Counted from the first letter of the stretch, positions 25,014-42,179 are shown. The stretch is DNA of 64,000 bases from Chlamydiota bacterium (GCA_016178055.1 JACOUC010000035.1:77325-141324), one strand, 5' to 3'. The notes: generated by a model not told the origin, from the sequence alone. Program-made: numbers and translations.

Positions 25014-25071
25014 TATTTAATTTATTGTCATTGTACATCATCAAAGGCAATCGCTCCACACTCACCTTAAA

Positions 25072-26112
25072 TCAATCCTCCATCTTAATCATGATACGCC
25101 CTGCATTTCCTTGTTCCAACTCTTTCAATGCTTGATTAATATCCTGAAGTCCATATTCATGCGTAATCATGCTCTTTAAGGGCAAATCTCCTGATAAAAA
25201 AAGGTTTGCGTAAAAAGGAATATCCTCATCTGTCTGGGCAGAGCCACCCCAAGAACCCAATATTTTTTTACCCTTAATTAAATCCATGGGATCAATCAAA
25301 ATCAAATCACCTTGAGATAAGTTACCCGCAATGACACAGATTCCTCCCTGGTCTCTTACAGATCGGAAAGCAGCCTCCATCGCCTGTTTTTTCCCCGAAG
25401 CTTCTATCGCATAATCCACACCCAATCCATTCGTCATATTGAGGATTTCAATTGCCACATCGCAAGACATTCCATTAATCGTGTGAGTTGCACCCAATTG
25501 TTTCGCTTGTTTTAATTTATGATCAAAAATATCGACCGCAATAATTTTATGAGCCTTAACAAAAGAAGCCGCCATCAAAGCACTCAAGCCCACTCCTCCA
25601 ATACCAAAAATAGCAACGCTCTCTCCCTCAGAAATCTTGGCCACTTTCAAAACGATTCCTGCACCCGTGGGAATCGCACAACCCAGAAGAGCAGCCTCTC
25701 GCAACGGCATAGAATCCAAAATAGGCGTAAGACGATTCTCGCAAGTAATGGTCCGCCTCATAAAGGTGCTAATTGCCCCAGAATTAACAGGACCTTCATC
25801 ACTCTGGTAAACCATCGAGGGGACATCCTTCCCTTTACCTTTAATCCAAGAAAGAACCACTCGATCGCCAGGTTTCACCTTCACAACATCGGAGCCCACT
25901 TCCAAAACTGTTCCAGAGCCCTCATGACCTAGGGTGTGAGGAAGAAAACGATCCGGTCCTCGTTTACCTAAAACTTCTAGAAGTTGACTGTGGCAAATAC
26001 TGCTATATGCAACATCCACAAGAACCTGTCCGGATTTAAGACTGGGTATCGTGACAGGAATAAGCTGCAGAGGTTTGCAAACTTCGAAAAGAACAGCTGC
26101 TTGGGTTTTCAT
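25072..26112 (-). CDS. Zinc-binding MDR-family alcohol dehydrogenase.
   Basis: CHSQL...GHEGSGTV zinc-ligand motif and a GxGxxG NAD region. Confidence 0.85.
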   Translation of the reverse strand: MKTQAAVLFEVCKPLQLIPVTIPSLKSGQVLVDVAYSSICHSQLLEVLGKRGPDRFLPHTLGHEGSGTVLEVGSDVVKVKPGDRVVLSWIKGKGKDVPSMVYQSDEGPVNSGAISTFMRRTITCENRLTPILDSMPLREAALLGCAIPTGAGIVLKVAKISEGESVAIFGIGGVGLSALMAASFVKAHKIIAVDIFDHKLKQAKQLGATHTINGMSCDVAIEILNMTNGLGVDYAIEASGKKQAMEAAFRSVRDQGGICVIAGNLSQGDLILIDPMDLIKGKKILGSWGGSAQTDEDIPFYANLFLSGDLPLKSMITHEYGLQDINQALKELEQGNAGRIMIKMED

Positions 26113-26190
26113 AAGAATGGGTGAGTGGTTACTGATATCTCTACTTATTATTCATACCCCTCACTCATAACCTCTCACCCCTCACCAAAT
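26113..26190 (-). promoter_or_regulatory. Conserved ~75-bp leader element immediately upstream of the ADH start codon (copy a).
   Basis: Shares GTGAGTGGTTA and CCCCTCAC(C) blocks with 40747..40807 and contains an inverted repeat. Confidence 0.4.
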
Positions 26191-26194
26191 AATA

Positions 26195-26863
26195 TTATTC
26201 CGCAATAAACCAATAATAATCGCCTGTATATCCGACTTCCTGAAAGAGTTTCTTCCAATCATTCACATGCATCATGGTTTCAGCGGTCAAAACCCATTTG
26301 TAAAGTTGTTCTTGCTCTTTTTCATTTCTCCAAGCATCCATGGTGATATAGCTGTGGCCACGGCTGACCCTCTGAATTTCTCTAAGGGCCTTCTTCAAAG
26401 GCTCAAGAGAAAGGTTGTGGATAGAATTGATAGAGATTACGAGATCAAAGCTTTTATCTGGAAAGGGTAAGCTTTCTGCACTCGCTACTTTAAGAAATGG
26501 TTTCACTGTAGGTATGGCGTGTTCAATGGCATATTCGCTCACGTCCACCCCTGCAACTTGGCATTCAGGCATGAGCTCTCTAAAATCATGCAACAAAAAT
26601 CCCTTTGCACATCCAATGTCTAAAACAGCAGCATTCTCTGGCAAACGATAATGATCGCGAAATCGTTTTGCGATATCTTTCCAACGCCCATCATATTTAT
26701 AGCCTCCATATCCCATCACACGAGGACCATCAAAAAACTCCCGACCAAATTGTTTAGCAATTCGGATAATTTCGGAAGTTTTCTCTTTGGCCCTTTGATC
26801 GTAATCACGAAGAGCTTTAGGGTGAGAATTTAAAAGATTAATTTCTGCCATCACGAAGGGCAA
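26195..26863 (-). CDS. Class I SAM-dependent methyltransferase.
   Basis: VLDIGCAKGF motif I. Confidence 0.8.
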   Translation of the reverse strand: MPFVMAEINLLNSHPKALRDYDQRAKEKTSEIIRIAKQFGREFFDGPRVMGYGGYKYDGRWKDIAKRFRDHYRLPENAAVLDIGCAKGFLLHDFRELMPECQVAGVDVSEYAIEHAIPTVKPFLKVASAESLPFPDKSFDLVISINSIHNLSLEPLKKALREIQRVSRGHSYITMDAWRNEKEQEQLYKWVLTAETMMHVNDWKKLFQEVGYTGDYYWFIAE

Positions 26864-26923
26864 TCCCTAATCCAAATAAACAATGCGCCATGGGTTCATA
26901 CCCGGTATGAACGACTTCATCAT

Positions 26924-27979
26924 TCATGACTTCTTCGCCTTTTCTACACCTTTGCTGAGCTCTTTTTCAAGCTCCTTAATCGCTGGAAAGCTTGATTTCA
27001 ATTTCTTCGGCAACGCATGCGTTAATTTATACTCTGATACCCCAATGGGTTTATGGATATCACTCATGGCATATTCTGCAACCAACTTATCCCGCCTCTT
27101 ACAAAGTAGAAGGCCGATTGTTGGGAGGTCCCCAACTTTACGCAACTGACTGTCCATCGCCTTGATATAAAAATTAAGTTTGCCAGCAAACTCCGGTTCG
27201 AAGTCCCCTGTTTTCAGTTCAACCACAACATAGCAATGCAAGCGAGTATGATAAAAAAGAAGATCTATAAAAAACTCTCGGTCCCCCACTTGAACAGGAA
27301 TTTGCCTGCCGATAAAAGCAAAACCGGCACCCAACTCCAGAAGAAAGCTCGTAAGATGATCTATGAGCTTATGTTCAAGCTCTCGCTCGCTAGAATCTGT
27401 AGACATGTTCAAAAAGTCAAAGATATAGGGATCCTTCAATGTTTGTTGAGCAAGATCGCCTTGGGGTTTAGGCAGCGTTAAATGAAAATTGCTAACGGCT
27501 TTCCCTTCCCGTTCAAAAAGACCGCTCTCTATCTGATGAACAAGAACGTTACGACTCCAATTATGCCTGATCGTGCCCTGCACGTAAAACATAGCTTCAC
27601 AGACGTCTTTGCATTTAGAGATAATGGCAATGTTATGTCCCCAGGGGATAGAGGTAATTTGGCCAACAACTTGTTGGCTAATTTGCTCTTCTTGGCTGTA
27701 AAATAAGTGCCACTGTTTGATATACTTTAAATTACTAAGTGAAAATCCTTTCATATCAGAAAATTCTGCCATCAAGTCCTTGCTGAGCCGAGGCAATAGA
27801 CCCTCTCCCCATTTTACGCTTTTTTGCCTGACAACAATATCCACGCCCATATCCCAATAAAGCTTTAACAGTTCAGTGTTTACACTGATCGCAGCTTTAA
27901 TCTGAGCACTGCGGACTCTCTTCTTAATATCCGAAAGCCAGGACTTGTATTCCTCGTCGCTCGTCAAATAATCTTTCAT
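26924..27979 (-). CDS. YhcG/DUF1016 family protein (PD-(D/E)XK nuclease-like C-terminus).
   Basis: FIDLLFYHTRLHCYVVVELKTGDFEPEFAGKLNFY matches the DUF1016 core. Flanked by ~50-bp direct repeats at 26871-26921 and 28033-28083. Confidence 0.8.
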   Translation of the reverse strand: MKDYLTSDEEYKSWLSDIKKRVRSAQIKAAISVNTELLKLYWDMGVDIVVRQKSVKWGEGLLPRLSKDLMAEFSDMKGFSLSNLKYIKQWHLFYSQEEQISQQVVGQITSIPWGHNIAIISKCKDVCEAMFYVQGTIRHNWSRNVLVHQIESGLFEREGKAVSNFHLTLPKPQGDLAQQTLKDPYIFDFLNMSTDSSERELEHKLIDHLTSFLLELGAGFAFIGRQIPVQVGDREFFIDLLFYHTRLHCYVVVELKTGDFEPEFAGKLNFYIKAMDSQLRKVGDLPTIGLLLCKRRDKLVAEYAMSDIHKPIGVSEYKLTHALPKKLKSSFPAIKELEKELSKGVEKAKKS

Positions 27980-28078
27980 ATTCTTAATGTCACAACCATC
28001 ATCGCTTTTTACGCATACAATCCAACACCGATGCCAAATAAATAATGGGCCATGGGATAATATCCTGTATGAACGACT

Positions 28079-28249
28079 TCATCGCCCATCATACCTATAG
28101 CCTCCGTATCCCATGATCCGAGGACCATCGAAAAATTCTGGTCCAAACTGTTTCGCAATTCGAATAATTTCTGGGGTCTTTTCCTTAACCCTTTGATCGT
28201 AATCCCGAAGGGTTTTAGGTTGGGAGTTTAAAAAATCAATTTCTGACAT
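28079..28249 (-). pseudogene. Remnant 5' fragment (56 codons) of the SAM methyltransferase gene, a duplicate of 26683..26863.
   Basis: Translation MSEIDFLNSQPKTLRDYDQRVKEKTPEIIRIAKQFGPEFFDGPRIMGYGGYRYDGR stops, whereas the intact gene reads MAEINLLNSHPKALRDYDQRAKEKTSEIIRIAKQFGREFFDGPRVMGYGGYKYDGRW. Confidence 0.6.
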
Positions 28250-28258
28250 TTGAAATTT

Positions 28259-30133
28259 CTATTTGACACGAGACGATTCCACAGAAAAATCTTTTAAGGA
28301 TATTTCCATGGGTTGAATCGTCATATTTTCAAGAAATTCTTTTCTTTCCAATAACGGATCTGCATCCTCATTGGGTCTCCCAAACTTCACTTGAGGAACG
28401 ACTCTTTCTTTGGAAGCAATTTCAACATTACAAAATACAGGACCTTTCGTCCTCAAAACCTCTTTAATACCATCTTCTAGTTGTTGAGTGCTAGAAAGGC
28501 AAACTGTCTTGTATCCATAAGCTTGTGCCACCTTTAAAAAATCAGGAAAAGCCAATCCTCCTTCAATAGAGGAGGCAAAATAATTTCCTTCTAACCATTG
28601 ATCCTGAGTTTGCTGAATCATGCTATAACCATGATTATTGATTAAAAAGATTTTAATGGGCAGTTGATAACGTAAAACGGTTGATAGCTCTTGGATATTC
28701 ATTTGCAAACTTCCATCTCCTGTCACACAAATTACAGATTTTTTTCCAAGCGCTAGAGAACCTCCTATGCTTGCTGGCAAAGCCCAACCCATCGCTGTAT
28801 TATTGCAATCATGATATAACCTTTGATCTGCTTTAAAATCAAATGCCTGCATCATCCAAGCTACAGCACAACCTGTATCTACAAACAAGGCGCTTCCTTT
28901 CTCGCAAGCTTGAGAAAGAGCTTTTACGAAAACATATGGATTAATTTCTTTTTGCCGATAATACTCGTCAGGACAAATAGGATACTTTTCTTTCCAGAAA
29001 GCAATTTGCTCTCTCCATGACGAGATATCACTTTTAGAGAAATTGACCATGTGCTGATTCAATTGTAATAAAAAATCCTTAGCATTTGCATGGATGAGTT
29101 GTTCTATTTTCAACCCAAACCTTTCAAATTTTTTTAATTCACTCAGATCAATATCGACAACTATTTTTTTGGCTGCCCTCGCAAAACTATAAGGAGGGCT
29201 TCCTGTGGCTTTTGTATCTAAACGCGTTCCTATCGCTAAAATTAAATCTGCATTTTGGACAGCAAAATTAGCGTATCGAGTCCCATGGGTTCCAAAGGTA
29301 CCGATTAAAAAAGGATAATCTGATTCAAAGAGATCTGCCATCGCCCATGTAGGAGCAACTGGGAAACCGAATTGCTCTACTAAATTTTTTGCTTCTTCCT
29401 CAGCTTTGGCCAAACGAACCCCCCATCCTAAAATAACCACAGGACGCTTGGCTTCTTTTAAAAGCTGCAGGCATTGATCGATATTAAAATTAGATTTTCT
29501 AGGAGCTTTTCCCTGATCCAAAACAAAAGGCTCAAGTAACGCTGGATTAATTTCCTCCCTTTGAATATTGTCGGGAATATCAATCACCACAGGTCCGGGT
29601 CGATCTGATTTTGCAATATGGCAGGCTTTTCCCAATTCATATCTTATTTTCATTGCATCGAGAATCTGTACAGCATATTTTGTGACGGATTTATAAATAC
29701 CAATCGTATCTGTTTCTTGAAAACCCATTTGTCGAACACCCGTATCTTTTTTCATTCTAAATGTCGAAACCTGACCTGTAATATAAATGACAGGTACAGA
29801 GTCATAATAGGCACAGCAAACTCCGGTCAGCATATTGGTAGCGCCAGGGCCACTTGTTGAAATGGCCGCTCCTAAATTCCCCGTAAGGCGAGAATACCCA
29901 TCAGCCGCCATGGCTCCTGCCTGTTCATGCTGAGGACAAATAAATTCAATACCTTCGGTTTCTGCAAGAGCATGAATGAGATGAAGGGAGGCGCCACCAG
30001 AAACAGCAAAAACATGGCGAATGCCCTGTTGGGCTAAAAATCTTGCGACATAATCAGAGAGCTTCATGCCAAGGCATCTCCAATTTAGATGTGATAAAAA
30101 GTGTTCCCTCACGATAACTGGTTGGCATGTCAT
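28259..30133 (-). CDS. Thiamine-diphosphate enzyme of the acetolactate-synthase/YerE family.
   Basis: N-terminal MKLSDYVARFLAQQGIRHVFAVSGGASL...GPGATN and a C-terminal ThDP-binding GDGS region. The probable start is the internal MKLSDY Met, at about 30067. Confidence 0.85.
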   Translation of the reverse strand: MTCQPVIVREHFLSHLNWRCLGMKLSDYVARFLAQQGIRHVFAVSGGASLHLIHALAETEGIEFICPQHEQAGAMAADGYSRLTGNLGAAISTSGPGATNMLTGVCCAYYDSVPVIYITGQVSTFRMKKDTGVRQMGFQETDTIGIYKSVTKYAVQILDAMKIRYELGKACHIAKSDRPGPVVIDIPDNIQREEINPALLEPFVLDQGKAPRKSNFNIDQCLQLLKEAKRPVVILGWGVRLAKAEEEAKNLVEQFGFPVAPTWAMADLFESDYPFLIGTFGTHGTRYANFAVQNADLILAIGTRLDTKATGSPPYSFARAAKKIVVDIDLSELKKFERFGLKIEQLIHANAKDFLLQLNQHMVNFSKSDISSWREQIAFWKEKYPICPDEYYRQKEINPYVFVKALSQACEKGSALFVDTGCAVAWMMQAFDFKADQRLYHDCNNTAMGWALPASIGGSLALGKKSVICVTGDGSLQMNIQELSTVLRYQLPIKIFLINNHGYSMIQQTQDQWLEGNYFASSIEGGLAFPDFLKVAQAYGYKTVCLSSTQQLEDGIKEVLRTKGPVFCNVEIASKERVVPQVKFGRPNEDADPLLERKEFLENMTIQPMEISLKDFSVESSRVK

Positions 30134-30950
30134 CTACATGGCTCACCCGTTTCCAACCCGTTTTTTGAGAAAAAAGACGAACACCCGTTTTTTGGAAATG
30201 TTCATAAATAGCCGTTGCATTGTTTGGATTACCCACTTCAATGAGACCATCTGTATTTGCCCAATGATCCCGATGGGTCCCCAACAGAACTTCTTTCTCG
30301 TGTCCTTCAATGTCTAATTTAACTAAATCAGCCCAGGAAAGAAGGGCATTCATGGCTTCAACCTTCACAGGAAATCTTTCAAGCTCGCCATAAGGATGAG
30401 CTTTCGCACCCGCCAGATGACTCCCGGTTGTATTTCCTAACACCCTCACAAATTCCATCTCTCCCGCTTGAGTCGAAACAGCTGTATTAAAGGCGTGAAT
30501 ATTCGAACAATGATTAAAGTCTAAATTTCTTTTAAAAATTTCAAAATGCTTGGGATCCGGTTCATAGGCATGCACTTCAAATCCACATTTGCTTAAGATG
30601 ATGGAATGAAGTCCAATATTGGCCCCAATATCAAGAACCCGTCGATAAGAACGACGATGCATCCAATAAAAACTAAAAATAATCAACTCATCCAGATCAA
30701 ACAAATTGAGAGAATCAACCGCGCCCATGTTATGGTAAGGAAAGGTTAAACTTCCAAAAGGTTTAAAATCTACAGGAACTCCATCATTATTTAGAAAAAG
30801 ATTTTCTATTTCACGACGCGCAATCTTCTTGAAAAAAGAATACAACGATGAGCCGGGTGCATGAAGAGCGCTCAAAGAAGGCAATGTTAACAAGAGTTCT
30901 TCAAGAACGAAAGTCGAAGAGACATTGACCGCCTGTAGACTAGGAGCCAT
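30054..30950 (-). CDS. FkbM family methyltransferase.
   Basis: VLDIGANIGLHSI...YEPDP. Confidence 0.8.
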   Translation of the reverse strand: MAPSLQAVNVSSTFVLEELLLTLPSLSALHAPGSSLYSFFKKIARREIENLFLNNDGVPVDFKPFGSLTFPYHNMGAVDSLNLFDLDELIIFSFYWMHRRSYRRVLDIGANIGLHSIILSKCGFEVHAYEPDPKHFEIFKRNLDFNHCSNIHAFNTAVSTQAGEMEFVRVLGNTTGSHLAGAKAHPYGELERFPVKVEAMNALLSWADLVKLDIEGHEKEVLLGTHRDHWANTDGLIEVGNPNNATAIYEHFQKTGVRLFSQKTGWKRVSHVDDMPTSYREGTLFITSKLEMPWHEAL

Positions 30951-31890
30951 TTTTCAAAACCCAATCATTGCCAAACCTTCTTAATTTATACATATGCGGC
31001 TCTTCTGTTAGTTTCTTGGCCAAAATCTCATTCCCCCACGGATCATAAACCACACTAAAATTGCGGCCGCTGACTACTTCCCGAGGAGAATCCACCAACC
31101 AATCACAACAAGCGACGATCCTTTCGAAAGAAGTACACTCATCGCTCGCCAATTTATCAAGAGTCTTCTGGTAACTAGGACCTGCTCGTACACCCGCTTT
31201 CAAAGTTGATTCATGGATCTTGGTTTTAACCCAACCAGGTCCCACAATGACAAAACGGCAATCTGGAATCTCAGCATCCAAAAGTTCACACATCTTGATC
31301 AAAGCAATTTTAGAAACCGTGTACGCCGAATAATTGACAGTCGCATTGTTGGTCCCACCCCCTGCAAAAAAAAGAACGCAAGAACCTAATTTCGAATCGA
31401 CTCGACGGGTTGGAAGAAGTTCGCGAACGATTCTCATCGGACCTGTAAAATTGATCTTCAAAGATTCTTCCCATTCATCAAAATTGCACTCCTGAAAAGC
31501 ACTTACAGGATCTTGAGTCCCGGGACATAGGACCAACGCATCCCATTGGGGACAAAGGGCTCGAAGATTCACACAAGCATCCAATATCGATCTCTGATTT
31601 GAGAGATCGCAACGACCCATTTTCATGCCCCAACTGCTTAACTCCTCAACAGCCTGAGATTCTGTCCGATAGGTTCCAAACAAATTCCAGCCCCTCTCTA
31701 TCCATGATCTGCCGATAGCACTTCCAATATCACTGGACGCAGATATGATAATAGCTGAACTTCCAACACTCTCTCCTCTCACAAACATATTAAACTCCCT
31801 ATCAACCAAAGAGTTAAAAGGCTGATCGGTGTTTCCCCCCATTGACATGAAAACACGAGCCAGTAATCCATGCAGATTTATCAGAAGCAA
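30940..31890 (-). CDS. Atypical SDR-like NAD(P)-dependent oxidoreductase.
   Basis: AIIISASSDIGSAIG glycine-rich motif. The start is probably internal. Confidence 0.55.
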   Translation of the reverse strand: MLLINLHGLLARVFMSMGGNTDQPFNSLVDREFNMFVRGESVGSSAIIISASSDIGSAIGRSWIERGWNLFGTYRTESQAVEELSSWGMKMGRCDLSNQRSILDACVNLRALCPQWDALVLCPGTQDPVSAFQECNFDEWEESLKINFTGPMRIVRELLPTRRVDSKLGSCVLFFAGGGTNNATVNYSAYTVSKIALIKMCELLDAEIPDCRFVIVGPGWVKTKIHESTLKAGVRAGPSYQKTLDKLASDECTSFERIVACCDWLVDSPREVVSGRNFSVVYDPWGNEILAKKLTEEPHMYKLRRFGNDWVLKNGS

Positions 31891-32626
31891 GGAATGTAAC
31901 TAAACCCGCTACGTCGTCCCCTTGACCTATTCTACCCAAGGGAATTCTGGCCGCACCCTGAGCATCTATCTTGATTCTAGCATTGATGAGAGAAATTTCT
32001 TCCTCGTAAGCAACCTGTTTGGCTAATTGATCTCTTCCATCAGAATGCACCTGCCCCACACAAATAACATTGACCAAAACACCGTCACTTCCTAACAAAT
32101 TAGCCAAGTGCTTACTCAAATTAATCACCGCTGCCTTGCTTGCACAATAATGAGGGATTAAAAGACCAGGTTCTACCCCTGAAATGGACGCTATATTAAT
32201 AATACGTCCCACTTTTGATTTTTTGAGCCACGGCAAGGCCTGCTGTACAAAGTGAACCACTGTCATCACATTCAGATCAAATGCGGATATCCAATCATCA
32301 CGGTTTAAGTCATAAAATTTTGTTATTTTATTTACCCCACCAACGTTATTAACAAGAATATCTAGCCTGCCGAATCTCTGAATCGCATCCCCAACAACTC
32401 GCTGCACAGATTGAGGATCCGTAGCATCAGCAGCCACAGCAAAAGCTTTTCCTGGAAGTCTTTCAAATTCTTGCACAGTCGCCTCGAGCACGACAGGATC
32501 ACGAGCTGTCAAAACAACATCTGCACCTTCCTGAGCAAGGGACTGAGCAATAGCTTTACCAATGCCTTTGCTGCTTCCCGTGATAAGAGCCACTCGACCC
32601 GTCAAAGTTAAGTGAGTGTTTTCCAT
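31814..32626 (-). CDS. SDR family oxidoreductase.
   Basis: VALITGSSKGIGKAIA, NNVGG and YCASKAAV. Confidence 0.85.
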   Translation of the reverse strand: MENTHLTLTGRVALITGSSKGIGKAIAQSLAQEGADVVLTARDPVVLEATVQEFERLPGKAFAVAADATDPQSVQRVVGDAIQRFGRLDILVNNVGGVNKITKFYDLNRDDWISAFDLNVMTVVHFVQQALPWLKKSKVGRIINIASISGVEPGLLIPHYCASKAAVINLSKHLANLLGSDGVLVNVICVGQVHSDGRDQLAKQVAYEEEISLINARIKIDAQGAARIPLGRIGQGDDVAGLVTFLASDKSAWITGSCFHVNGGKHRSAF

Positions 32627-32684
32627 CCACCTTCCTTAAGTGTTGAACTGTCACAAATTGAAGCCCACGAAAGCTGAAAGGGCA

Positions 32685-34748
32685 TCAACCCAAGGGGAAA
32701 GACCCAAGGCTTGCCACAATATCTTCCGCAGCTGGAACAACTTCTCGAAACAATCGTTTGATAGGTGATACTCGCATCAAAATTCGACTCATTCCATCTA
32801 ACGATGTGCCGTACTGTTTAACATATCCTTCTATCAAAGTCTTTTGCTTATCCGTGTGCGCAAAGAGAAAGTTGCAAGGTTTATCCAGTAAATAAAGAGA
32901 GGGATCCACATTGTAGTTTTGTTCCCCAATGGCTGAAAAATCAAAATGAAGAAGACGATTAAACCGTCTTTCTGCATTAGTCAAATCTACTTTTCTAAGC
33001 AAGCCATATTCTTTCAATTCTTCCAAATACAGTTCTTTAATCTCATCCAGACGCTCAGACTCTTTGAGCATCGTTTTCATGATCGCAAACAATGCGTTAT
33101 GCAAATCAACCTGCAAATTTAAAAATGCTACGGCCTTACCATTGGACATTTCATTGGTACTACTTTCACTGCTGAAAAAGGCATCCATGTTTTCACGCAC
33201 ATAAGCTGCTAGATCTTCTCGCCTATCCCAGAGGCGGCTGATTGTCTCGGCACGAAACGAATCATACAAATGAATCAACCCCTCAGTGAAAGACCGCCGC
33301 GTGTTGTGAAAACGCATGATGAAATCAAACCAGGGAAAGCCTGCCCATTTACATAACCCCCATAACTCGGCAAAAGTCCTCCCATTGTGCACAATTTCTA
33401 CCGTGAGATCTAATTCTCGACATTCAATATACTCTTCAAAACTCAAACTATGAGTCTGAATACAAATTTCTTCAGATTCAACAGAGCTGAAAATTTCATC
33501 TTGAAAATCATATTTACCAAAAGACCGCGGCATGATGCGATATTTCGTCTTCATCGCATATTGGTTTCGAGTTTTGGGAGTGTTAAGTTCAGTTTGAGGA
33601 AGCATAATAAGCTGATACATTCTCAAAACTCCTAGATTGGCTTCTACCACATCGCGTAGAGAGTGCATGTGTTTTTCCATCGTATCCCCTGGCAAACCTA
33701 AAATAATTTCAGAATAAGTGTCCGCACTCGTTTTATTAGCCTGCTGAGCCATGGTACTTAGGGCATCCAGAGAAATATTAGATCGCTGAATATTGCTGAG
33801 CACCGTTTGATCCGTAGATTGTAACGATGCAGCAATATTCAGCGCACCATTGAGCATAGATGCAACTTCGATCACGTGTTCCTTCCGGTTCTTTCCAGTT
33901 GAGACAACCACTCGCTGTGGCCAACCATATTTATCCTGGATAGAGGCAATGATGCCTGCCTTTGCTTTGTCCTCTTTATACATTCCAAAATTAGCATCTG
34001 TAAGGTATAAATCAGGGACACTCCCAACACGCTGCGCAATGTACTCTAGCTCATCCTTTAAATCAATTCTTTGTGCAACTTTAGAATAATAGGATGACCC
34101 TTCAGAACAAAACGTACAAGTAAAGGGGCAACCCCGTGTTGTGTGAACCATGGGTGATAAAACTTGATCGAAAAACTTATCCATCAACCCCATCAAGTAT
34201 GGAGAGGACAATTCCCCCAAATCTTTGATTCTGGGAAGCATTTCTCCAATCATCATCTTGCCATTAGACCAATAATGACAGTTGGGAAGTAGCCTCTGAT
34301 CCCGTTTTAAGGCGAGTACATCATAATTTACCTCGTGCAATGCTTTAACCAGCTCAATCATTGCCAATTCACCTTCCTTGACAACATAAAAGTCAAGAAG
34401 CGGAAACCGATTCCAAAATGCCAGCATTTCTTCTTCTGTCAGACCATAATTAGGACCTCCAAACACAATCACGGTATCTGGAAAACTTTTCTTTATGCGG
34501 CTTGCATATTGATAAGACAAGTCACAGTTCCACGAGTAGTTTGTAAAACCAGCGATTCGAGGCATACGCCGCCGAAGAGAACGAGACAAATCTTGAGGAT
34601 ATTTAAAAACTTCCACCTCGACAATCTCAGGCAGGCTTCTTAGCAATTGCGCCCCAATCAAACCACCCGCCAAGGGATGTACATTGGATGAAATAACCGA
34701 TCCAGTATGCGTAAGATCTGATAAATAGATTAGAGTCTTTGCAATCAT
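32685..34748 (-). CDS. B12-binding radical SAM enzyme (class B), second copy.
   Basis: TTRGCPFTCTFC CxxxCxxC motif after an N-terminal B12-binding-like domain. 687 aa. Confidence 0.8.
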   Translation of the reverse strand: MIAKTLIYLSDLTHTGSVISSNVHPLAGGLIGAQLLRSLPEIVEVEVFKYPQDLSRSLRRRMPRIAGFTNYSWNCDLSYQYASRIKKSFPDTVIVFGGPNYGLTEEEMLAFWNRFPLLDFYVVKEGELAMIELVKALHEVNYDVLALKRDQRLLPNCHYWSNGKMMIGEMLPRIKDLGELSSPYLMGLMDKFFDQVLSPMVHTTRGCPFTCTFCSEGSSYYSKVAQRIDLKDELEYIAQRVGSVPDLYLTDANFGMYKEDKAKAGIIASIQDKYGWPQRVVVSTGKNRKEHVIEVASMLNGALNIAASLQSTDQTVLSNIQRSNISLDALSTMAQQANKTSADTYSEIILGLPGDTMEKHMHSLRDVVEANLGVLRMYQLIMLPQTELNTPKTRNQYAMKTKYRIMPRSFGKYDFQDEIFSSVESEEICIQTHSLSFEEYIECRELDLTVEIVHNGRTFAELWGLCKWAGFPWFDFIMRFHNTRRSFTEGLIHLYDSFRAETISRLWDRREDLAAYVRENMDAFFSSESSTNEMSNGKAVAFLNLQVDLHNALFAIMKTMLKESERLDEIKELYLEELKEYGLLRKVDLTNAERRFNRLLHFDFSAIGEQNYNVDPSLYLLDKPCNFLFAHTDKQKTLIEGYVKQYGTSLDGMSRILMRVSPIKRLFREVVPAAEDIVASLGSFPLG

Positions 34749-34760
34749 AAGAATTTCTCC

Positions 34761-35603
34761 TTAAATTGGGACCGAGCTCTCATCATGTCTCTTCTGAAAA
34801 TGAAGCATCAAACTAAATTGTTCCTGCACAGACATTCCACCATCCATCACAATACATTGACCAGAAATATAGGATGCGTTGGGTGAACAAAGAAACAGCG
34901 CCGCATGAGCAACATCATCAGAACGCCCTGGCTGTCCCATCGGATGGCAAAATTCAACCAGTTCTCGATAACCTTGATTGTCATCTTGCCTATAACGATC
35001 AAGATCTTCATCCCGAATAATAACGCCAGGCAATAATGCATTAACTCGAACACCTTCTGCACCTCCTCGAACAGCAAAATAGCGAGTCATCTGAGTCAAT
35101 CCCACTTTCGCAATTTGATAGACAGGAGAAACTTCACGTGCAGAAAGCAGTCCTGTGATTGAACTGATGTTAACAATGCTTCCCCCGCCATTTTTTGCCA
35201 TTGTAGAAATAGCTGCCTGAGACGCAAAGAACGCAGCCCGAAGATTAACAGCCATTTCGAGATCCCAACTTTCTTCATCATCCGATTTGTCCCGAGAACG
35301 GACAGCCCTTGCATTATTCACCAAAACATCAATCTTTCCATAACTCCTGACAATCTGACGAATCATCTCTTGTGGTGTCCCCTTCTCACTTAAATCAACT
35401 TTCAAAAACGTAGAAGAGAGCTTTCGATCACGTAAATCTGTTACGGTTGTATGTCCCTCTTTATCATTGAGATCGCAGACAATAACCATCGCGCCTTTTT
35501 GAGCAAATGCATTAACAATGTTTTTACCAATACCTCGTGCGCCTCCTGTAACAGCAACTATTTTCCCTTCAAAAAGAGATAGAGAATCAGGCGTGATGGA
35601 CAT
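34761..35603 (-). CDS. SDR family oxidoreductase.
   Basis: VAVTGGARGIGKNI, NNAR and YQIAKVGL. Confidence 0.85.
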   Translation of the reverse strand: MSITPDSLSLFEGKIVAVTGGARGIGKNIVNAFAQKGAMVIVCDLNDKEGHTTVTDLRDRKLSSTFLKVDLSEKGTPQEMIRQIVRSYGKIDVLVNNARAVRSRDKSDDEESWDLEMAVNLRAAFFASQAAISTMAKNGGGSIVNISSITGLLSAREVSPVYQIAKVGLTQMTRYFAVRGGAEGVRVNALLPGVIIRDEDLDRYRQDDNQGYRELVEFCHPMGQPGRSDDVAHAALFLCSPNASYISGQCIVMDGGMSVQEQFSLMLHFQKRHDESSVPI

Positions 35604-35811
35604 ATTCCAAGGGCTCCTTTACAATTTGATCCCAATATTTTTCTATCCAGGCAACAACACCTCCAACACCTTCATTCAAAGAGATTTTATTTGACCATCC
35701 TAATGTCTTTCTCGCCTTCGTCGAATCAATCACATAAGCTTGATCTTGTCCCAAGCGCTCCGGTGCAACAACCGTAACATCCTCAAAAGATTTTCCTAAA
35801 ACAAATGTCAC
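35587..35811 (-). pseudogene. Orphan C-terminal fragment of an NDP-sugar 4,6-dehydratase/epimerase.
   Basis: ...VAPERLGQDQAYVIDSTKARKTLGWSNKISLNEGV... is a dehydratase C-terminus. A second copy of the same 3' end is found at 38272..38424. Confidence 0.55.
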
Positions 35812-36620
35812 GCAACCATTCGTGGGGGCTTATTTCCAGGAACAAGAAGCCTATTATTTTTTTTTAAAACCTTCAATTCATCAATGATAGGCGCCCAATA
35901 GATACGATCCCTTCTTCGTGATTCTTCTATTTCCAATGCCATTTCTTGAGAAGCCTCTTTAAGATGTACCGCTTTTCTATGATCCTGTAGCAATGCTTGT
36001 AAACACAGAGATAAGCATTTTCTAGAAAGATGTGCACCTATTGTTTTAGCTGTTTCATCCGACTGAAGGTAATCAAGTATATCCTCAACCTCAAAACTAT
36101 TTTTTAATATCCATTTCCAGTCATTCATTTTCAATTTTCTTTCAGAAAGATTCCTGGATTCGATTCGAACAAGATTTGAAATGATCGGGTAGTCTTCCAA
36201 ACGTCTCGTTTTTTTTATTTCCACCAAATCTCTTATTGCAACTACAGGAATTTTGCCCCAATCTGTCATTGGGTATTTTACACGCTTGAAAGAATCATCA
36301 TAATCCCCAACCCGAGGGGCTACTCCCATAACATCCAAAAACCAAAAAGGAATATTTTTGTCTTCATCTGGAATCTGAAAATGAAAACCATGCCCTTGAG
36401 AGATCCATTTCATTGAAATGGGCGGCGTTAATTTGTATATCACTGCACCCACACTTCCAAGCACCTTTAGAAATCTGTTCCAGTTCTCTTTCACTGGTTG
36501 AACCCACAGATCAATATCTTCTGAAAAGGTGGCGGCTCCATAAATCACAGAAGCCTGCCCGCTAATCAACATATAAGAAACGCCTGAAATATTAAGGTCT
36601 TGGAAAAATCTTTTTATCAT
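35808..36620 (-). CDS. Nucleotidyltransferase-like hypothetical protein (paralog family A/B/C, with 47300..48082 and 53349..53939).
   Basis: ISGQASVIYGAATFSEDIDLWV resembles a minimal NTase G[GS]...D.D motif. IPVVAIRDLVEIKKTRRLEDYPI is shared with 47300..48082. Confidence 0.5.
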   Translation of the reverse strand: MIKRFFQDLNISGVSYMLISGQASVIYGAATFSEDIDLWVQPVKENWNRFLKVLGSVGAVIYKLTPPISMKWISQGHGFHFQIPDEDKNIPFWFLDVMGVAPRVGDYDDSFKRVKYPMTDWGKIPVVAIRDLVEIKKTRRLEDYPIISNLVRIESRNLSERKLKMNDWKWILKNSFEVEDILDYLQSDETAKTIGAHLSRKCLSLCLQALLQDHRKAVHLKEASQEMALEIEESRRRDRIYWAPIIDELKVLKKNNRLLVPGNKPPRMVA

Positions 36621-36894
36621 GGATTTCCTCTATGTTTTTGAGTCTTAGGCGAAGCGCACAAGAACGGCGAAGCCTTCCTCGAGCCGTCATTTTCTGCCAA
36701 GCAGTTCTCTGAAATGTCCCAATAAGCGATTCATTAAGGTATATCATTTTTCTCATGTTTTGAATTACTCGTCCCTGCTTTAATTTACGAGACAGTGTTT
36801 CGTGAATTGAAGCAATTCTGGATAACACCCAAAGGTTTAAGACGACTCTTATCCACCGCCACTCCTTTTCGGCTTCTTATCCCGTCAAGACCGA

Positions 36895-37077
36895 TCAAAG
36901 TGCTTCATGAATGATGGGGTCCATTGACTTACTAAGTTTCGCCAGCATCCAAAGGTCTTTAGAAGTGGCGACCGAATTAACGCGAATGTTTCCAAATTCC
37001 AATGTTTCGGACAGCAGTTGGGTTCTTAAGAAGAAAATATATTTGGCACGGTCATAGGGCTGTTTAAAATCCATCAA
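36895..37077 (-). CDS. Small hypothetical ORF with an ATGA overlap to the YhcG stop.
   Basis: 60-aa ORF only. Weak. Confidence 0.25.
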   Translation of the reverse strand: MMDFKQPYDRAKYIFFLRTQLLSETLEFGNIRVNSVATSKDLWMLAKLSKSMDPIIHEAL

Positions 37078-38108
37078 TTTTTCATCTCCTCTAGAAGCTG
37101 GCTTTTCAGTTCTTTTTCAGGAGGTAAAATTTTCTTAAGATCTGATGGAATTTTATTTGTTAAATGATATTGAGACACACCCATAGGGTTCTTAACACTT
37201 CGAAGGGCATATTCTACAACGATATTTTTCTTCTCGGCGCAAAGGATAATACCAATGGAAGGATTTTCATCTTTGAAACGCACTTTATCATTCAATAAAT
37301 GAAGATAAAAATCCATTTTCCCTGCATATTCAGGCTGAAATTTTCCTGTTTTCAGCTCAATGGCAACAAGGCATTTGAGCTTTCGGTTAAAGAAAAGCAA
37401 ATCTATGAAATATTCTTCCCCGTCTATCTCAAGCCGGTATTGATTACCGATAAATGAAAACCCGGCACCAAGCTCAAGAATAAAATGTTTCATTTTTTCA
37501 ATAAGCCGTTTTTCAAGCTCCCGCTCCACAAAAGGTCTGGTTATCCCAAGAAAATCAAGGTTGTAGACGCTTTTAAGTGATTCATCGGCCTGTTCTGCCA
37601 AATATGCTGGTAAAACTTTCTCGTAATTGTGTTGTTTTTTCTTCAAGTGGAGTCGATAGGCATCAGCTTTGATTTGATTCAAAAGAACATTTCTTGACCA
37701 TCCTAATTTGGATGATTCGTTAATATAATATTCCCGTTCTTTGAGATCCTTAATTTTCTGCATAATAAGAATATTATGACCCCATGGAATTTCTGGCACA
37801 AGCTGTGCCAGTTTTACATCATCCTTGTATTCAAGATAAAACATTCGCATCCGCCATAGATTATCCGGTGAAAAGCCTTCCAAACTTGGATACTCACGGT
37901 TAAGGTCATGGGATAATTGTTCAACAACCCTTTGCCCCCATTTATATTTTTCCTGGCGCTCAACAATGCTCTTGCCAATATCCCAGTATAGTTTAATAAG
38001 ATCTTTATTAATCGAGCGTGCGGAACCAATGCGGGCAGAAACAATGCGTGATTTGATTTCATGCAGGAATTGACCATAGGCTTTTGAAGTGATCTCGCCA
38101 GATTTCAT
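37074..38108 (-). CDS. YhcG/DUF1016 family protein, second copy.
   Basis: FIDLLFFNRKLKCLVAIELKTGKFQPEYAGKMDFY. About 45% identical to 26924..27979. Confidence 0.8.
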   Translation of the reverse strand: MKSGEITSKAYGQFLHEIKSRIVSARIGSARSINKDLIKLYWDIGKSIVERQEKYKWGQRVVEQLSHDLNREYPSLEGFSPDNLWRMRMFYLEYKDDVKLAQLVPEIPWGHNILIMQKIKDLKEREYYINESSKLGWSRNVLLNQIKADAYRLHLKKKQHNYEKVLPAYLAEQADESLKSVYNLDFLGITRPFVERELEKRLIEKMKHFILELGAGFSFIGNQYRLEIDGEEYFIDLLFFNRKLKCLVAIELKTGKFQPEYAGKMDFYLHLLNDKVRFKDENPSIGIILCAEKKNIVVEYALRSVKNPMGVSQYHLTNKIPSDLKKILPPEKELKSQLLEEMKN

Positions 38109-38271
38109 TCAAATACTCCTTGATTTCCCATAAATGCGAAGGTACATTCGTCCTTCACCCCCAGATGTTTCGTCCAGCTAATTTCTTCAACCAGTGGTTG
38201 GAGATTTGCGTTTTTTTGACATGCATCATCTCCTGCTTCAGACACATCACTCATAATCAGATTTTTGAAAT

Positions 38272-38940
38272 TAGGGCTTGTGAACATAATCCAAAGGCTC
38301 CTTCGTAACTTGATCCCAAAATTGATCAATCCAATTCACAACCCCTTTAAGACCTTCTTCGAGAGAAATTCTTGAAGACCACCCTAAAGTTTTCCTCACT
38401 TTTGTCGAATCAATCACATAAGCTTTATCTTGTCCCAAAGGCAGCGTAGGGAGTCGAGGGATTCATGGGAGAAGTCTCTGTCACATTCCCCTCACAGGTT
38501 CCATAAACCTCGGGAGAAGAAATATGTACATATCGCTTCAAATATTTCTTATCTTTGAGATGATGAATTAATTGCGCCAAGGCCACGGTATTGGTCTGAA
38601 ACCAATGATGAGGATTTTCCCAACTTGGAGCCACTTCGCTTTGCGCTGCAAAATTAACGATGTATTCTGGCTGAAACTGATCCAAAGTTTCTAAAATACG
38701 CGACATGTCTTTATTAAAATCCAATTGATGAAATTTAAAATTCCCATTTACAGAGTGGCGTTTATAGGGCAAAAAAAGCTCCGTCTTTTCTGGAGAACGG
38801 CTCGCCCCCATCACTTCGAAACGCCCTTCCTCTAAAAGCAAATCTATAAAATCACTTCCAGAGAAAGAATTGCTTCCAAGGACTGCAACCTTTTGTCTTC
38901 TGTGTTCTGTCTTCTGTATTCTGTCTTCTGTATTCTGCAT
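38272..38940 (-). pseudogene. NDP-sugar 4,6-dehydratase gene with a large internal deletion and frameshift.
   Basis: The N-terminal 171 codons (VLGSNSFSGSDFIDLL...PYAA) stop at 38425. The C-terminal ~45 codons (LGQDKAYVIDSTKVRKTLGW...) continue in another frame, and about 130 central residues are absent. Confidence 0.6.
38893..38940. repeat. Imperfect 7-bp (CTGTNTT) / 14-bp tandem repeat, ~3 x 14 bp, at the 5' end of the dehydratase pseudogene.
   Basis: ttgtcttctgtgtt ctgtcttctgtatt ctgtcttctgtatt ctgcat read directly from the sequence. Confidence 0.6.
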
Positions 38941-38942
38941 TT

Positions 38943-39839
38943 TTAAAAAGGCCCTCGAAACGCAGGATCTGGAACATCCAAATGAATCGCCGAGAACGGA
39001 ATCTCCTCTTCAAGATGATCTCTTTGAAACATTTCACGTGTTGCTGCAACCATCTCAGTGGCTCGGGGATAAAATCGTTTTGCGAGAGTGGGCGTCGTAG
39101 GAGTGGGGACATCTGGAAGGGCAACGCGTTTTGGAGCACATTTGAGTTCGTTCATGGCTTTTTCAGCAACCAAGGCAATAATCTCTGCAGAAGCTCCAAA
39201 AGATTTCCAGCTCGTATCTGCAACAATTAATCGTCCTGTTTTCCGCACTATATTGTGCAGCCATCGATGCTCAATAAAAATGACAGGATTATTGTCCTCA
39301 ATGCTTGAAATCAAAAGGCCCTTTGCATCATAAGGAGTGACCGGCATGACCACTTTCAAACCTGGCACATGTGCAAACCAAGACTGAAGGCTTTGTGAAT
39401 GCTGAGGCCCTTGCCCCCAACCTCGACCTATAATTAAGCGAACTACCAAGGGAACATGGGCTTCGCCTCCAAACATGTAATGCCATTTAGCGGCCTGATT
39501 CACCATTGGCTCCATGGCAAGCATGGCAAAATCAATTCGCTGATGCGTTAGAATCGGTCTCATCCCCACAAGGGCTGAACCGATCGCAACGCCCGTCATC
39601 CCATTTTCTGAAACGGGCATATCCATCACACGCCCATTTCCAAACTTTTCTTGTAGGCCTGAAGTCGTCCCAAAAATACCTTTCGGATCCGGCACTCCCA
39701 ATCCCATGATATAAACGCTCGGATTGCTCTCCATGCAAAGCGTGGTCGCTTCGCGAATGGCTTCAAAAAATTTAAGTTCTCTAGGCATAGACATTCTCAT
39801 AAAGCGCTGATTCTTCTGGAAAAGGACTTTGTTTAGCAA
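38943..39839 (-). CDS. Pyruvate/2-oxoacid dehydrogenase E1 component, beta subunit (transketolase-like).
   Basis: Pyrimidine-binding domain (PVSENGMTGVAIGSALVGMRPI). The probable start is at MSMPREL. Confidence 0.85.
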   Translation of the reverse strand: MLNKVLFQKNQRFMRMSMPRELKFFEAIREATTLCMESNPSVYIMGLGVPDPKGIFGTTSGLQEKFGNGRVMDMPVSENGMTGVAIGSALVGMRPILTHQRIDFAMLAMEPMVNQAAKWHYMFGGEAHVPLVVRLIIGRGWGQGPQHSQSLQSWFAHVPGLKVVMPVTPYDAKGLLISSIEDNNPVIFIEHRWLHNIVRKTGRLIVADTSWKSFGASAEIIALVAEKAMNELKCAPKRVALPDVPTPTTPTLAKRFYPRATEMVAATREMFQRDHLEEEIPFSAIHLDVPDPAFRGPF

Positions 39840-40746
39840 ATTGAACCGATCCTTCTACCTCATCATCAATCAATTTTGCCATTTGATTTAATTCTTCTTC
39901 CGTAATACTGTTTTCGTTTAGTAATTTTTTTCGGAAATTTTCAAGAGGACATTTCTTTTTCCAAATTTCAAATTCTTCAGGCGTTCGATAACCCAAGTCA
40001 TTGTCAAAATTTGGACCGCAATGCTCGCGCCAGCGGTAGGTCGTAAACTCAAGAAAAGAGGGGCCTTTGCCTTCACGTGCCTTCTGAATGGCTTTTTGGG
40101 CAAGCGTAAAAACCGCCACGACATCATTGCCATCCGCTTTATGGCTTTCAATGCCGTACCCGCACACCAGTTCAAAAACTTCACGATTTTCGGGCTGGCG
40201 AACTTCCAGAGGCGAATAGACAGAATATAAATTATTTTCACAAATAAAAATCACCGGCAGTTTTTTCAAAACAGCAAAATTAATACTCTCATGAAACACA
40301 CCTTCTTCAGTCGCCGCCTCTCCAAAGAAAACCGTGGTCACACGAGATTCTTTTTTCATTTGAGTCCCCAAGGCGGCTCCAACCCCAATAGGAATCGTAC
40401 TTCCCACAATGGGCGTAGACCCCAGAAAACCAACTGAAAGATCAATCAAATGCATGGACCCGCCCTTACCTTTTGAGCAGCCCGTCCCCTTTCCATAAAG
40501 CTCCGCCATCATTTTTCTAAGATCCCCACCCTTAGCTAAATAATGGCCGTGAGCACGATGACCGCTCATCGCATAATCTCCCTGGGTCAACGCCTGACAA
40601 ACACCGACAGCAACGGCTTCCTGACCAATACAAAGATGTATCGGACAACGCATTTCCTGTTCTGGATAAAGCTCCGCAATCTTTTCCTCGATTTTGCGAA
40701 TGCGGAGCATTTGGTAGTATAGTTTTTTTAGAATTTGGACTTCCAT
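39781..40746 (-). CDS. Pyruvate/2-oxoacid dehydrogenase E1 component, alpha subunit (ThDP-binding).
   Basis: IHLCIGQEAVAVGV and GKGGSMHL motifs. Confidence 0.85.
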   Translation of the reverse strand: MEVQILKKLYYQMLRIRKIEEKIAELYPEQEMRCPIHLCIGQEAVAVGVCQALTQGDYAMSGHRAHGHYLAKGGDLRKMMAELYGKGTGCSKGKGGSMHLIDLSVGFLGSTPIVGSTIPIGVGAALGTQMKKESRVTTVFFGEAATEEGVFHESINFAVLKKLPVIFICENNLYSVYSPLEVRQPENREVFELVCGYGIESHKADGNDVVAVFTLAQKAIQKAREGKGPSFLEFTTYRWREHCGPNFDNDLGYRTPEEFEIWKKKCPLENFRKKLLNENSITEEELNQMAKLIDDEVEGSVQFAKQSPFPEESALYENVYA

Positions 40747-40807
40747 AGGGTAATAAGAGTGAGTGGTTATTGGTGAGAGGTACTTTTACCACTCACCACT
40801 CTACCCC
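40747..40807 (-). promoter_or_regulatory. Conserved leader element immediately upstream of the E1-alpha start (copy b).
   Basis: GAGTGAGTGGTTA...ACCACTCACC inverted repeat plus a CCCCTCACC block, shared with 26113..26190. Confidence 0.4.
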
Positions 40808-41797: not shown

Positions 41798-41798
41798 A

Positions 41799-42179
41799 CT
41801 ATTTCACTAACGCGTGAGGAAAATTTGGACTTTCCGGGTTAACCACAAGCTTGCGATGAGCGGGGGATACGATTAAATCCATATCCTCCATGGGCACAGC
41901 TCCCAACAGAACTTCATCACCTATCACAAGGGCCCCAACAAAACAATTACGATTCTCAAATATTACCTCTACAGGTCCAACATACGAAACCAGATGCCGT
42001 TTTCCGTCAGCAGTCGTCACTTCCCTTTTGTTATTTTCCTCGAGCTTCAACTGCAACGCAACATGTTCCGGAATACAAAGCGTTAAGGCGCCTGTATCCA
42101 CCATGGCCTTTGTTAATACCACCTTTAACTTTGGCAACCGTGGATTTTTAAGTTGAATTTCTGCATGGATATAACCCAT
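41799..42179 (-). CDS. Retropepsin-like (clan AA) aspartic protease domain protein.
   Basis: VDTGALTL D-T-G-A catalytic motif in a 126-aa protein. Paralog of 48917..49279. Confidence 0.55.
   Translation of the reverse strand: MGYIHAEIQLKNPRLPKLKVVLTKAMVDTGALTLCIPEHVALQLKLEENNKREVTTADGKRHLVSYVGPVEVIFENRNCFVGALVIGDEVLLGAVPMEDMDLIVSPAHRKLVVNPESPNFPHALVK

Follow-up and report, generated by a model that had tools for sequence, protein, structure and literature searches.

Two intergenic spacers in a 64,000-nt stretch of DNA from a Chlamydiota bacterium (GCA_016178055.1, JACOUC010000035.1:77325-141324; hereafter the window, numbered from its first letter) resemble each other beyond chance, and each can be folded into a stable hairpin that reaches to, or nearly to, the start codon of the following gene. 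We give about an even chance to the reading that these spacers, R1 (26113-26194, 82 nt) and R2 (40747-40807, 61 nt), each hold a copy of one small stem-loop repeat, imperfectly palindromic and specific to its lineage, similar to the repetitive extragenic palindromes (REPs) of other bacteria and acting as a hairpin in intercistronic mRNA. The family is best read as one carried by uncultured bacteria that NCBI labels 'Chlamydiae bacterium', and not as a new class of cis-regulator. Every open reading frame (ORF) of the window lies on the minus strand, so R1 and R2 are to be read on that strand, where their sense sequences are tttGGTGAGGGGTGAGAGGTTATGAGTGAGGGGTATGAATAATAAGTAGAGATATCAGTAACCACTCACCCATTCTTATG and GAGGTGAGGGGTAGAGTGGTGAGTGGTAAAAGTACCTCTCACCAATAACCACTCACTCTTATTACCCTATG, respectively. 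Both are entire intergenic spacers: R1 separates the stop codon TAA (26195-26197) of a methyltransferase gene from the ATG (26110-26112) of a zinc-dependent alcohol dehydrogenase (ADH) gene, with the repeat element proper covering about 26111-26186, and R2 precedes the gene for the E1 alpha subunit of a thiamine pyrophosphate (TPP)-dependent dehydrogenase, its repeat reaching 5 nt into the upstream epimerase gene (40747..40812). The sequence comparisons set out below point to R1 and R2 having been inserted between co-transcribed genes, from the stop codon of one to the start codon of the next, in place of the short, Shine-Dalgarno (SD)-containing junctions of homologous clusters.

R1 and R2 share an anatomy of two or three forward G-rich 9-mers, GGTGAG[G/A/T]GG, followed by one or two reverse-complement 9-mers, CC[A/T]CTCAC(C), the last of which is embedded in a block common to both spacers, CA(R)TAACCACTCAC(N0-4)TCTTAT (in pattern form CARTAACCACTCAC), near the start codon. 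The forward units of R1 (26156..26186, minus strand, given in sense) are GGTGAGGGG (26178-26186), GGTGAGAGG (26171-26179) and AGTGAGGGG (26157-26165), and its 3' block (26111..26134), CAGTAACCACTCACCCATTCTTAT, includes the reverse unit CCACTCACC (26120-26128) and ends on the AT of the ADH start codon. The first unit of R2 is again GGTGAGGGG (40804-40812) and takes in the epimerase stop codon TGA (40808-40810); the second, GGTGAGTGGTAA (40786..40797), forms an inner helix with CCTCTCACC. The reverse units and 3' block of R2 (40753..40781) consist of ACCTCTCACC (40772-40781), CAATAACCACTCAC (40759-40772) and TCTTAT (40753-40758), and the E1-alpha ATG follows 6 nt later. On the plus strand, GTGAGTGGTTA (26121-26131 and 40759-40769) and CCCCTCACC (26178-26186 and 40804-40812) are exact in both copies, and the longest common block is GTGAGTGGTTAYTG, so the shared blocks reported in the initial annotation are real. 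The conserved leader of about 75 bp that it had drawn from them is not: what R1 and R2 have in common is the unit architecture and two blocks of 10-16 nt, with no colinear 75-nt leader. The inverted repeat it had assigned to both is exact in R2 (GTGAGTGGT/ACCACTCAC), but in R1 the arms ACCCCTCAC and ACCTCTCAC carry one mismatch each, and the proximal arm stands 8 nt (R1) and 12 nt (R2) from the ATG, where 10-20 nt had been given. The 58-nt spacer directly downstream of the ADH gene (25014-25071) starts with TTTAAGGTGAGTGTGGAG and so contains a single GGTGAGTG unit, for which there is no reverse counterpart; it has no significant fold.

These units are concentrated at R1 and R2 to a degree that effectively refutes chance resemblance. 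With up to one mismatch, TAACCACTCAC matches four times in the 64 kb, always within R1 or R2, where 0.64 matches are expected and none of 100 shuffles reaches four. The forward unit GGTGAGGGG, also with up to one mismatch, has 19 matches in the window (10.2 expected), seven of them within R1/R2, and three or more GTGAG/CTCAC per 100 nt occur in the 64 kb only at R1 and R2. The hairpin pattern GTGAGNGG-N3-33-CCNCTCAC has three matches, all within R1/R2, for an expectation of 0.00. Local alignment of R1 with R2 scores 26, against 13.7 +/- 2.3 in dinucleotide shuffles, and a single shuffle in 2000 reaches 26, so the blocks align better than random sequences of this kind would, one of the two points on which the initial annotation had staked its proposal. 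What could be said for chance resemblance between two G/T-rich spacers is that plain alignment is not outstanding, the R1/R2 pair coming second among 325 pairs of real window spacers, tied with one other (23 vs 23). Set against the shuffle counts, the hairpin pattern and the retention of both spacers in a sister genome, we consider this explanation extremely improbable.

Folding predictions give both spacers a stable hairpin in the sense RNA, at -23.8 kcal/mol for R1 (z -1.9 to -3.2) and -30.5 to -32.1 kcal/mol for R2 (z -3.2 to -3.8). Just three of the window's short co-directional spacers have a significantly better fold than shuffled sequence: R1, R2 and 60807-60887. The predicted R2 helix runs from two codons before the epimerase stop to 7 nt before the E1-alpha AUG. 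In R1 the predicted 5' arm begins 8 nt past the upstream stop and the 3' arm overlaps the AUG: a core helix pairs unit 2 (GGGUGAGAGGUUAU) with GUAACCACUCACCC, the AU of the start codon is taken up in a weak outer helix (GUGAG/CUUAU), and the 3' block is base-paired in every predicted fold. Sense folds are more stable than antisense folds by 3-5 kcal/mol; as one R2 substitution is a wobble in the antisense strand but a mismatch in the sense strand, the fold comparison does not decide the strand. Terminator and promoter readings of these hairpins were rejected. A consensus scan of 24000-43000 called 27 terminator-like sites, none of them in R1 or R2, no U-tract follows either stem (the tails are CAUUCUUAUG and UCUUAUUACCCU), and no promoter-like site was called in either spacer. 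Searching the whole window against Rfam 15 gave no match at gathering thresholds, and a permissive search returned only noise resembling microRNA-precursor hairpins, at 18 bits or less where the thresholds are at least 51.

The orthologous locus is found in two sister metagenome-assembled genomes (MAGs), GCA_016178005.1 (contig JACOUD010000024; loci L164 and L168) and GCA_016196885.1 (L166). R2 is kept in JACOUD01 and JACPWU01 and R1 in JACOUD01, with the same junctions and the same spacer lengths. Relative to the sister genome, R1 differs at 4 of 82 nt and R2 at 3 of 61 (about 95% identity), whereas the genes on either side are only 69-82% identical at four-fold degenerate sites (73% pooled); with the four-fold-site identity as baseline, the pooled binomial probability of so few changes in R1 and R2 is 6.5e-12. 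For R1 the contrast is local as well, its 4.9% divergence standing against 18% and 34% at the third positions of codons within 150 nt to either side, and its AT-rich loop is conserved too. R1 thus evolves far more slowly than neighbouring synonymous sites and is not neutral filler. For R2 the contrast with synonymous sites is not robust, because R2 lies within a 270-nt tract whose coding flanks are equally 93-97% identical.

How the seven substitutions are distributed is also informative. None falls in the 3' block, five are in or adjoin the G-rich units or their reverse copy, and two disrupt pairs in the minimum-energy fold of the window sequence; CAATAACCACTCACTCTTATTAC in R2 is unchanged in the sister MAGs, and the reverse unit ACCTCTCACC has one substitution. 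Folding persists in the sister orthologs, at -21.6 and -25.7 kcal/mol. The R1 ortholog has unit 2 weakened by a G>A change, while its unit 3 becomes fully complementary through A>G (AUGGGUGAG/CUCACCCAU), and the predicted partner of the 3' block is accordingly unit 2 in the window sequence and unit 3 in the sister genome. This switch of partner means that redundant units buffer the hairpin; it is suggestive, though it is no test of covariation.

The same comparison bears on the reading that R1 and R2 have no present function, being selfish or slippage-generated palindromic insertions, or cassette scars, that are alike through recent recombination or gene conversion. The locus is indeed a patchwork into which many toxin-antitoxin, YhcG and other selfish genes have been inserted, their junctions duplicated; R2 sits inside the 270-nt tract of 93-97% identity, and the observed substitutions break predicted pairs without compensation. 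Absence of function would sit poorly, however, with the slow change of R1 relative to adjacent third codon positions and with an alternative unit that keeps the hairpin in both genomes, and other cassette junctions of the locus carry no R-like sequence. On balance we regard functionless scars as decidedly unlikely.

Sister identity also raises a role at the level of DNA, either as a palindromic operator or roadblock within the operon or as a conserved linker serving as a crossover point for swaps of glycan modules. Both spacers offer palindromic half-sites, such as GGTGAGAGGTAC-TTTT-ACCACTCACC in R2, and identity with the sister genome drops directly downstream of both: below R2 it falls from 95-97% to 50-75%, about 60 nt into E1-alpha, and below R1 from 93-97% to 77% at the 5' end of ADH. 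R2 and R1 bracket about 14 kb in which gene content is largely different in the sister genome. The borders of the variable segment nevertheless miss the elements, since conservation takes in the methyltransferase that precedes R1 as well as the opening 60 nt of E1-alpha, and identity fluctuates between 78 and 100% throughout the locus. With no promoter-like site in either spacer and no candidate regulator identified, we think a role in DNA very unlikely.

Where homologous gene clusters occur in other lineages, the element is missing. Outside the sister MAGs, E1-alpha and ADH have no relatives above about 70% identity, and their homologs are spread across many phyla. On DAOULT010000027 the epimerase stop is about 15-26 nt from the E1-alpha start, with a GGGGAG SD in between, and a NUDIX gene ends 3 nt before ADH; L227 has a 1-nt overlap of E1-alpha with the gene before it, and L228 a 5-nt gap. 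A leader specific to the ADH and E1-alpha genes is therefore not what these junctions hold: the element is present in the sister MAGs only and absent from these three other clusters, so R1 and R2 are lineage-specific insertions and not ancestral leaders.

Searches for further copies were made in genome, metagenome and viral collections. The pattern GTGAGDGGTWA-N6-36-TWACCHCTCAC gave at least 120 matches in the genome collection, and a scan of JGI metagenomes with the invariant 3' block gave 22, about the number expected by chance, with one credible relative. This relative, L188 (a 7.1-kb contig of 41% G+C), has a 19-mer, GTGAGTGGTTATTGGTGAG, identical to R2, besides two more GTGAG units and, at its centre, a CCCCTCTCCCC/GGGGAGAGGG hairpin. 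The 176-nt spacer that holds it is flanked by rex-like and nuoE-like genes, to which its orientation is opposite; it is far from a start codon, and from its sequence is a probable relative of R1 and R2 in an unrelated context. The other JGI matches are mostly unrelated conserved high-GC sequence, with one Nextera adapter artefact and one 55-nt tandem array; in the latter (L193, positions 1-677; 12.3 copies, 89% identity) each unit holds (C)AATAACCACTCACTCTTAT, the R2 3' block, probably by coincidence because the search pattern itself selected for it. Scans of viral contigs gave only chance-level or pattern-imposed matches. Homologs of the window's YhcG nucleases were tried as a link to further loci and set aside: they are horizontally spread in other phyla, and the best of them, P0121, belongs to a defence island in another sample. 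Neither the first nor the last ORF of the window has an identical protein on record.

Most of the matches listed from the genome collection are unrelated actinobacterial (Pseudonocardiaceae) palindromes, together with an alphaproteobacterial GGGTGAGGGGTTAC family. A 40-nt palindrome is very abundant in Pseudonocardiaceae (L044-L163; Amycolatopsis, Kibdelosporangium, Pseudonocardia and related MAGs), with many copies per genome among the matches listed; it takes the forms (t/c)cGTGAGTGGTAAG-inner stem-GTTCTAAC or GTTAGAAC-inner stem-CTTACCACTCACga; its outer stem and loop are conserved and its inner stem varies in a compensatory way. Also among the matches listed are hairpins armed with tandem heptamers (GGTGAGA / GGTAAGA / GGTTAGA, then a reverse-complement run) in L085, L118, L135, L157 and L160, from MAGs of Gemmatimonadales, Prevotellaceae and Bacteroidia (Bacteroidales), where they are sited between convergent genes like bidirectional terminators.

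A more specific function deserves consideration, namely that R1 and R2 are dedicated cis-regulatory leaders, a specific RNA or a target for a protein or small RNA (sRNA) that controls translation of these two internal genes; for example, G-rich SD-like decoys might be held by the CA-rich pre-start block and opened by a trans-acting factor or by translation of a tiny upstream ORF. The two spacers have the same orientation and the same invariant block 0-6 nt from both start codons, and R1 is conserved over its full length, loop included, far above local synonymous sites. Their G-rich units fit the SD core (GAGGTGA in R2; GGTGA/GAGG in R1), and R2 has a 10-codon ORF (GTG GTG AGT ... CAA TAA) 8 nt past GAGGTGA, in which the sole sister substitution, TCT>TCC, is synonymous. 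The mini-ORFs of the two spacers, MSEGYE in R1 and MVSGKSTSHQ in R2, are unrelated, though, and that of R1 has one non-synonymous change in the sister genome; not being homologous, they count only toward this reading. The downstream genes are likewise unrelated, homologous clusters elsewhere do without the element, there is neither covariation nor an Rfam match, and the probable relative L188 is oppositely oriented and far from a start codon. The lack of an SD, to which the initial annotation had drawn attention, is true for both genes at -3 to -13 but not distinctive, as a 4-nt SD core is present at these positions in only 27 of the 60 window ORFs and the other 33 lack even that. We therefore think it unlikely that R1 and R2 are leaders of this kind. 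The proposal of the initial annotation that they form a cis-regulatory RNA structure or operator fares in a mixed way: stable hairpins ending just before start codons and the slow evolution of R1 agree with it, but a conserved gene leader, covariation, an Rfam family and a promoter-like site are all wanting. The alternative it mentioned, another small repeat family, fits best, given lineage-specific insertion, short repeated units, L188 elsewhere in the opposite orientation and other palindrome families in the window, from which we take it that such elements are at home in this genome.

Among known systems, those nearest to R1 and R2 are short palindromic repeats between genes, of the REP/BIME-like or 'stem-loop sequence' kind. 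REP and BIME elements of Enterobacteria and Pseudomonas are repetitive extragenic palindromes mobilised by RAYT/TnpA-REP; REPs stabilise upstream mRNA and, close to a stop codon, lower translation of the upstream gene. R1 and R2 are like them in being short, imperfect intergenic palindromes, a kind often found within operons near stop codons, with stable stem-loops predicted in the mRNA and a lineage-specific distribution. They are palindromic and extragenic as REP/BIME units (about 20-40 nt each) are, the sole overlap being that of the first R2 unit with the stop codon. They differ in that their arms are several redundant 9-nt units and not a single palindrome, in their common orientation and abutment on start codons, and in having two copies in 64 kb with no RAYT in the window. 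The GTAG head of REPs is not at the foot of either palindrome; GTAG occurs inside both (GGGTAGAG in R2, AAGTAGAG in R1), and the internal GTAG of R1 is GTGG in its ortholog. A separate GTAG-headed palindromic family is present in the window at 49820-49844, 62493-62531 and 62716-62783 (GTAGTCGCCCGATTTATCGGGC / GCCCCATAAATGGGGCGACTAC), forming very stable paired hairpins in long spacers (best folding segment within 49280-50004, z -6.0), and this family looks more REP/BIME-like than R1 and R2 do.

Other repeat classes share single traits with R1 and R2. Stem-loop sequence (SLS) families in bacterial genomes were described by Petrillo, Di Nocera and co-workers (PMC2267715, PMC1590033); they are likewise repeated intergenic sequences able to form hairpins and often transcribed within mRNAs, but SLS is a descriptive class without a defined mechanism, and the R1/R2 family is not known from its catalogues. 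The heptamer-armed hairpins of Bacteroidales, Prevotellaceae and Gemmatimonadales, and the cyanobacterial STRR, resemble them in having arms of tandem degenerate 7-9-mers (GGTKAGA / GGTGAGN) followed by the reverse complement; the hairpins of other phyla are terminator-like and lie between convergent genes, whereas R1 and R2 lie between co-directional genes, directly before a start codon. STRR are tandem heptamer repeats whose unit sequences differ from those of R1 and R2. Miniature inverted-repeat transposable elements (MITEs) are usually 100-400 bp long, and R1 and R2, at 60-76 nt, are shorter; a MITE reading was rejected on the absence of a target-site duplication, as no direct repeats stand at the flanks ATTATTT/..CTTATG and CAGTTGA/..TTACCCT. 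An integron attC reading was rejected too, with no R''/R' core sites in the sequence. A MITE-like element of about 182 nt is found elsewhere in the window (6680-6861), with 25-nt terminal inverted repeats that are 96% complementary, and a partial second copy (45378-45499), 97% identical, lies 38.7 kb away.

The cluster context invites comparison with JUMPstart/ops, the RfaH recruitment site of polysaccharide operons. Like those, R1 and R2 are short conserved non-coding elements just before genes, in a polysaccharide cluster with its own NusG paralog, but they are internal to the operon and not in its leader. An ops reading of GGGGTAGAGTG in R2, which resembles ops, was rejected: the ops core GGCGGTAG has no match with up to one mismatch in R1 or R2 and is not enriched in the window (23 matches vs 17.4 expected), and no related motif occurs around the NusG-paralog gene. 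That paralog (PF02357, 210 aa; 57829-58461, minus strand) heads the glycan cluster, downstream of a MacB/HlyD/ABC efflux operon, and probably serves this one-directional cluster of more than 55 kb as a specialised antiterminator of the RfaH/UpxY/LoaP kind; its upstream region contains a 27-nt inverted repeat (58477-58503 / 58650-58676).

How would a REP-like hairpin act here? Each copy in the mRNA would fold into a hairpin that fills nearly the whole spacer, and its effect would most likely be post-transcriptional and generic. An intercistronic stem-loop may stabilise or delimit the upstream segment of the mRNA, and initiation at the SD-less downstream gene may have to wait until the ribosome completing the upstream gene has opened the hairpin. 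The plausibility of both effects rests on known REP elements and on coupling hairpins. Translational coupling through ribosome unfolding of an intercistronic hairpin is known from the E. coli rpmI-rplT operon and from the coat and replicase genes of phage MS2. In the predicted folds R1 and R2 are similar, with a 5' arm that overlaps or follows the upstream stop codon and a 3' arm that covers the pre-start or start region where no SD is found. They differ in their long spacers (61-82 nt); in R2 the entire lower stem would be opened by a terminating ribosome, but in R1 such a ribosome would get no further than the weak outer helix over the AUG.

Several observations weigh against R1 and R2 being REP-like repeats with a generic hairpin function. 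Only two copies are present in 64 kb, with none extra in about 35 kb of sister contig, and the JGI scan returned roughly the chance number of matches with a single credible relative, the genome-collection matches listed being dominated by unrelated actinobacterial repeats; this is few for a REP family, whose hallmark is a high copy number, with tens to hundreds of dispersed copies per genome in either orientation. Neither a RAYT (Y1 transposase, PF01797) nor any other mobilising gene was found by Pfam in 60 ORFs of the window (nearly all of at least 90 aa). The initial annotation had suggested covariance analysis of the hairpin, and none of the seven substitutions in R1 and R2 relative to the sister genomes forms a classical, doubly compensatory pair, although divergence is too low for this to be a real test. 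The high conservation of R2 may reflect its recombination tract alone. Finally, R1 and R2 have the same orientation and nearly equal distances to the start codon, and the R1 loop is conserved, traits that would suit a dedicated function better than a generic hairpin.

In a bolder version, R1 and R2 would give environmental Chlamydiae-like bacteria a dedicated device for control between the cistrons of their NusG-paralog-driven glycan operons. Redundant SD-like G-rich decoys (GGUGAGNGG) would pair with the invariant CA-rich pre-start block, and the ribosome terminating upstream or a trans-acting factor would gate the SD-less gene, possibly with processing of the transcript, while the linker might serve as a crossover point for the module of about 14 kb. 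We see this as a long shot, and return to the REP-like repeat as the reading with about even chances.

The genes around the two spacers belong to a one-directional cluster for biosynthesis of a glycan, or of the nonulosonic-acid type, extending over more than 55 kb, with NeuB, CMP-sugar synthetases, epimerases, short-chain dehydrogenases/reductases (SDRs), radical S-adenosylmethionine (SAM) enzymes, methyltransferases and an ABC exporter; toxin-antitoxin pairs and two YhcG nucleases are scattered through it. Upstream of R1 is a class I SAM methyltransferase gene (26195..26863; Pfam Methyltransf_11/25) and downstream the ADH gene (25072..26112; ADH_N, ADH_zinc_N), whose JACOUD ortholog is 88% identical. 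R2 is preceded by the gene for an NAD-dependent sugar epimerase/dehydratase (40808..41797; Epimerase) and followed by that for E1 alpha (39781..40746; E1_dh), all four on the minus strand. Identical DNA is also present in the NCBI MAG GCA_016196915.1 and in the Logan assemblies of SRR12113387 and SRR12113388, runs from the NC groundwater samples, and the proteins carry the NCBI label given above.

The E1-beta gene (region 38425-39839) encodes 298 aa in the window and 368 aa on Logan contig L003, which comes from the same population and has an identical E1-alpha, and a truncated epimerase gene of 171 aa follows the window E1-beta; the locus here appears mosaic and partly decaying, and along it identity to the sister genome jumps between 50% and 100%. 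The two YhcG (DUF1016/PDDEXK) nuclease genes, at 26924-27979 and 37074-38108, are 41% identical to each other, and each is flanked by diverged duplicates (75-82%) of pieces of neighbouring biosynthetic genes (26682-26921 vs 28023-28249; 35585-35754 vs 38269-38438), which looks as if the inserted selfish gene had brought or created the second copy of the junction. In the sister genome the YhcG genes are at different positions. Stretches of 24-43 nt from the 3' end of an ABC-2 permease gene (sense ...TTTTTTGCGGATGTGGTGTAA, its stop lying at 50005) recur five to six times (44488, 46026, 48083, 48855, 49362 and 50005), and several of these copies stand directly before the starts of small inserted genes (a PIN toxin, an ORF of unknown function) between the permease and ATPase genes, an arrangement that suggests serial cassette insertion at one gene junction.

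If R1 and R2 are indeed REP-like repeats, the addition to what is known would be modest: uncultured Chlamydiae-like bacteria from groundwater would have such repeats within long glycan operons, where they replace SD-containing junctions. This would matter for annotation, because these spacers would be neither riboswitches nor promoters, and it would matter for differential expression within very long operons and as a source of lineage markers. If the pre-start block and the redundant SD-like units truly gate translation, they would constitute a simple and portable means of controlling an internal gene that has no SD of its own.

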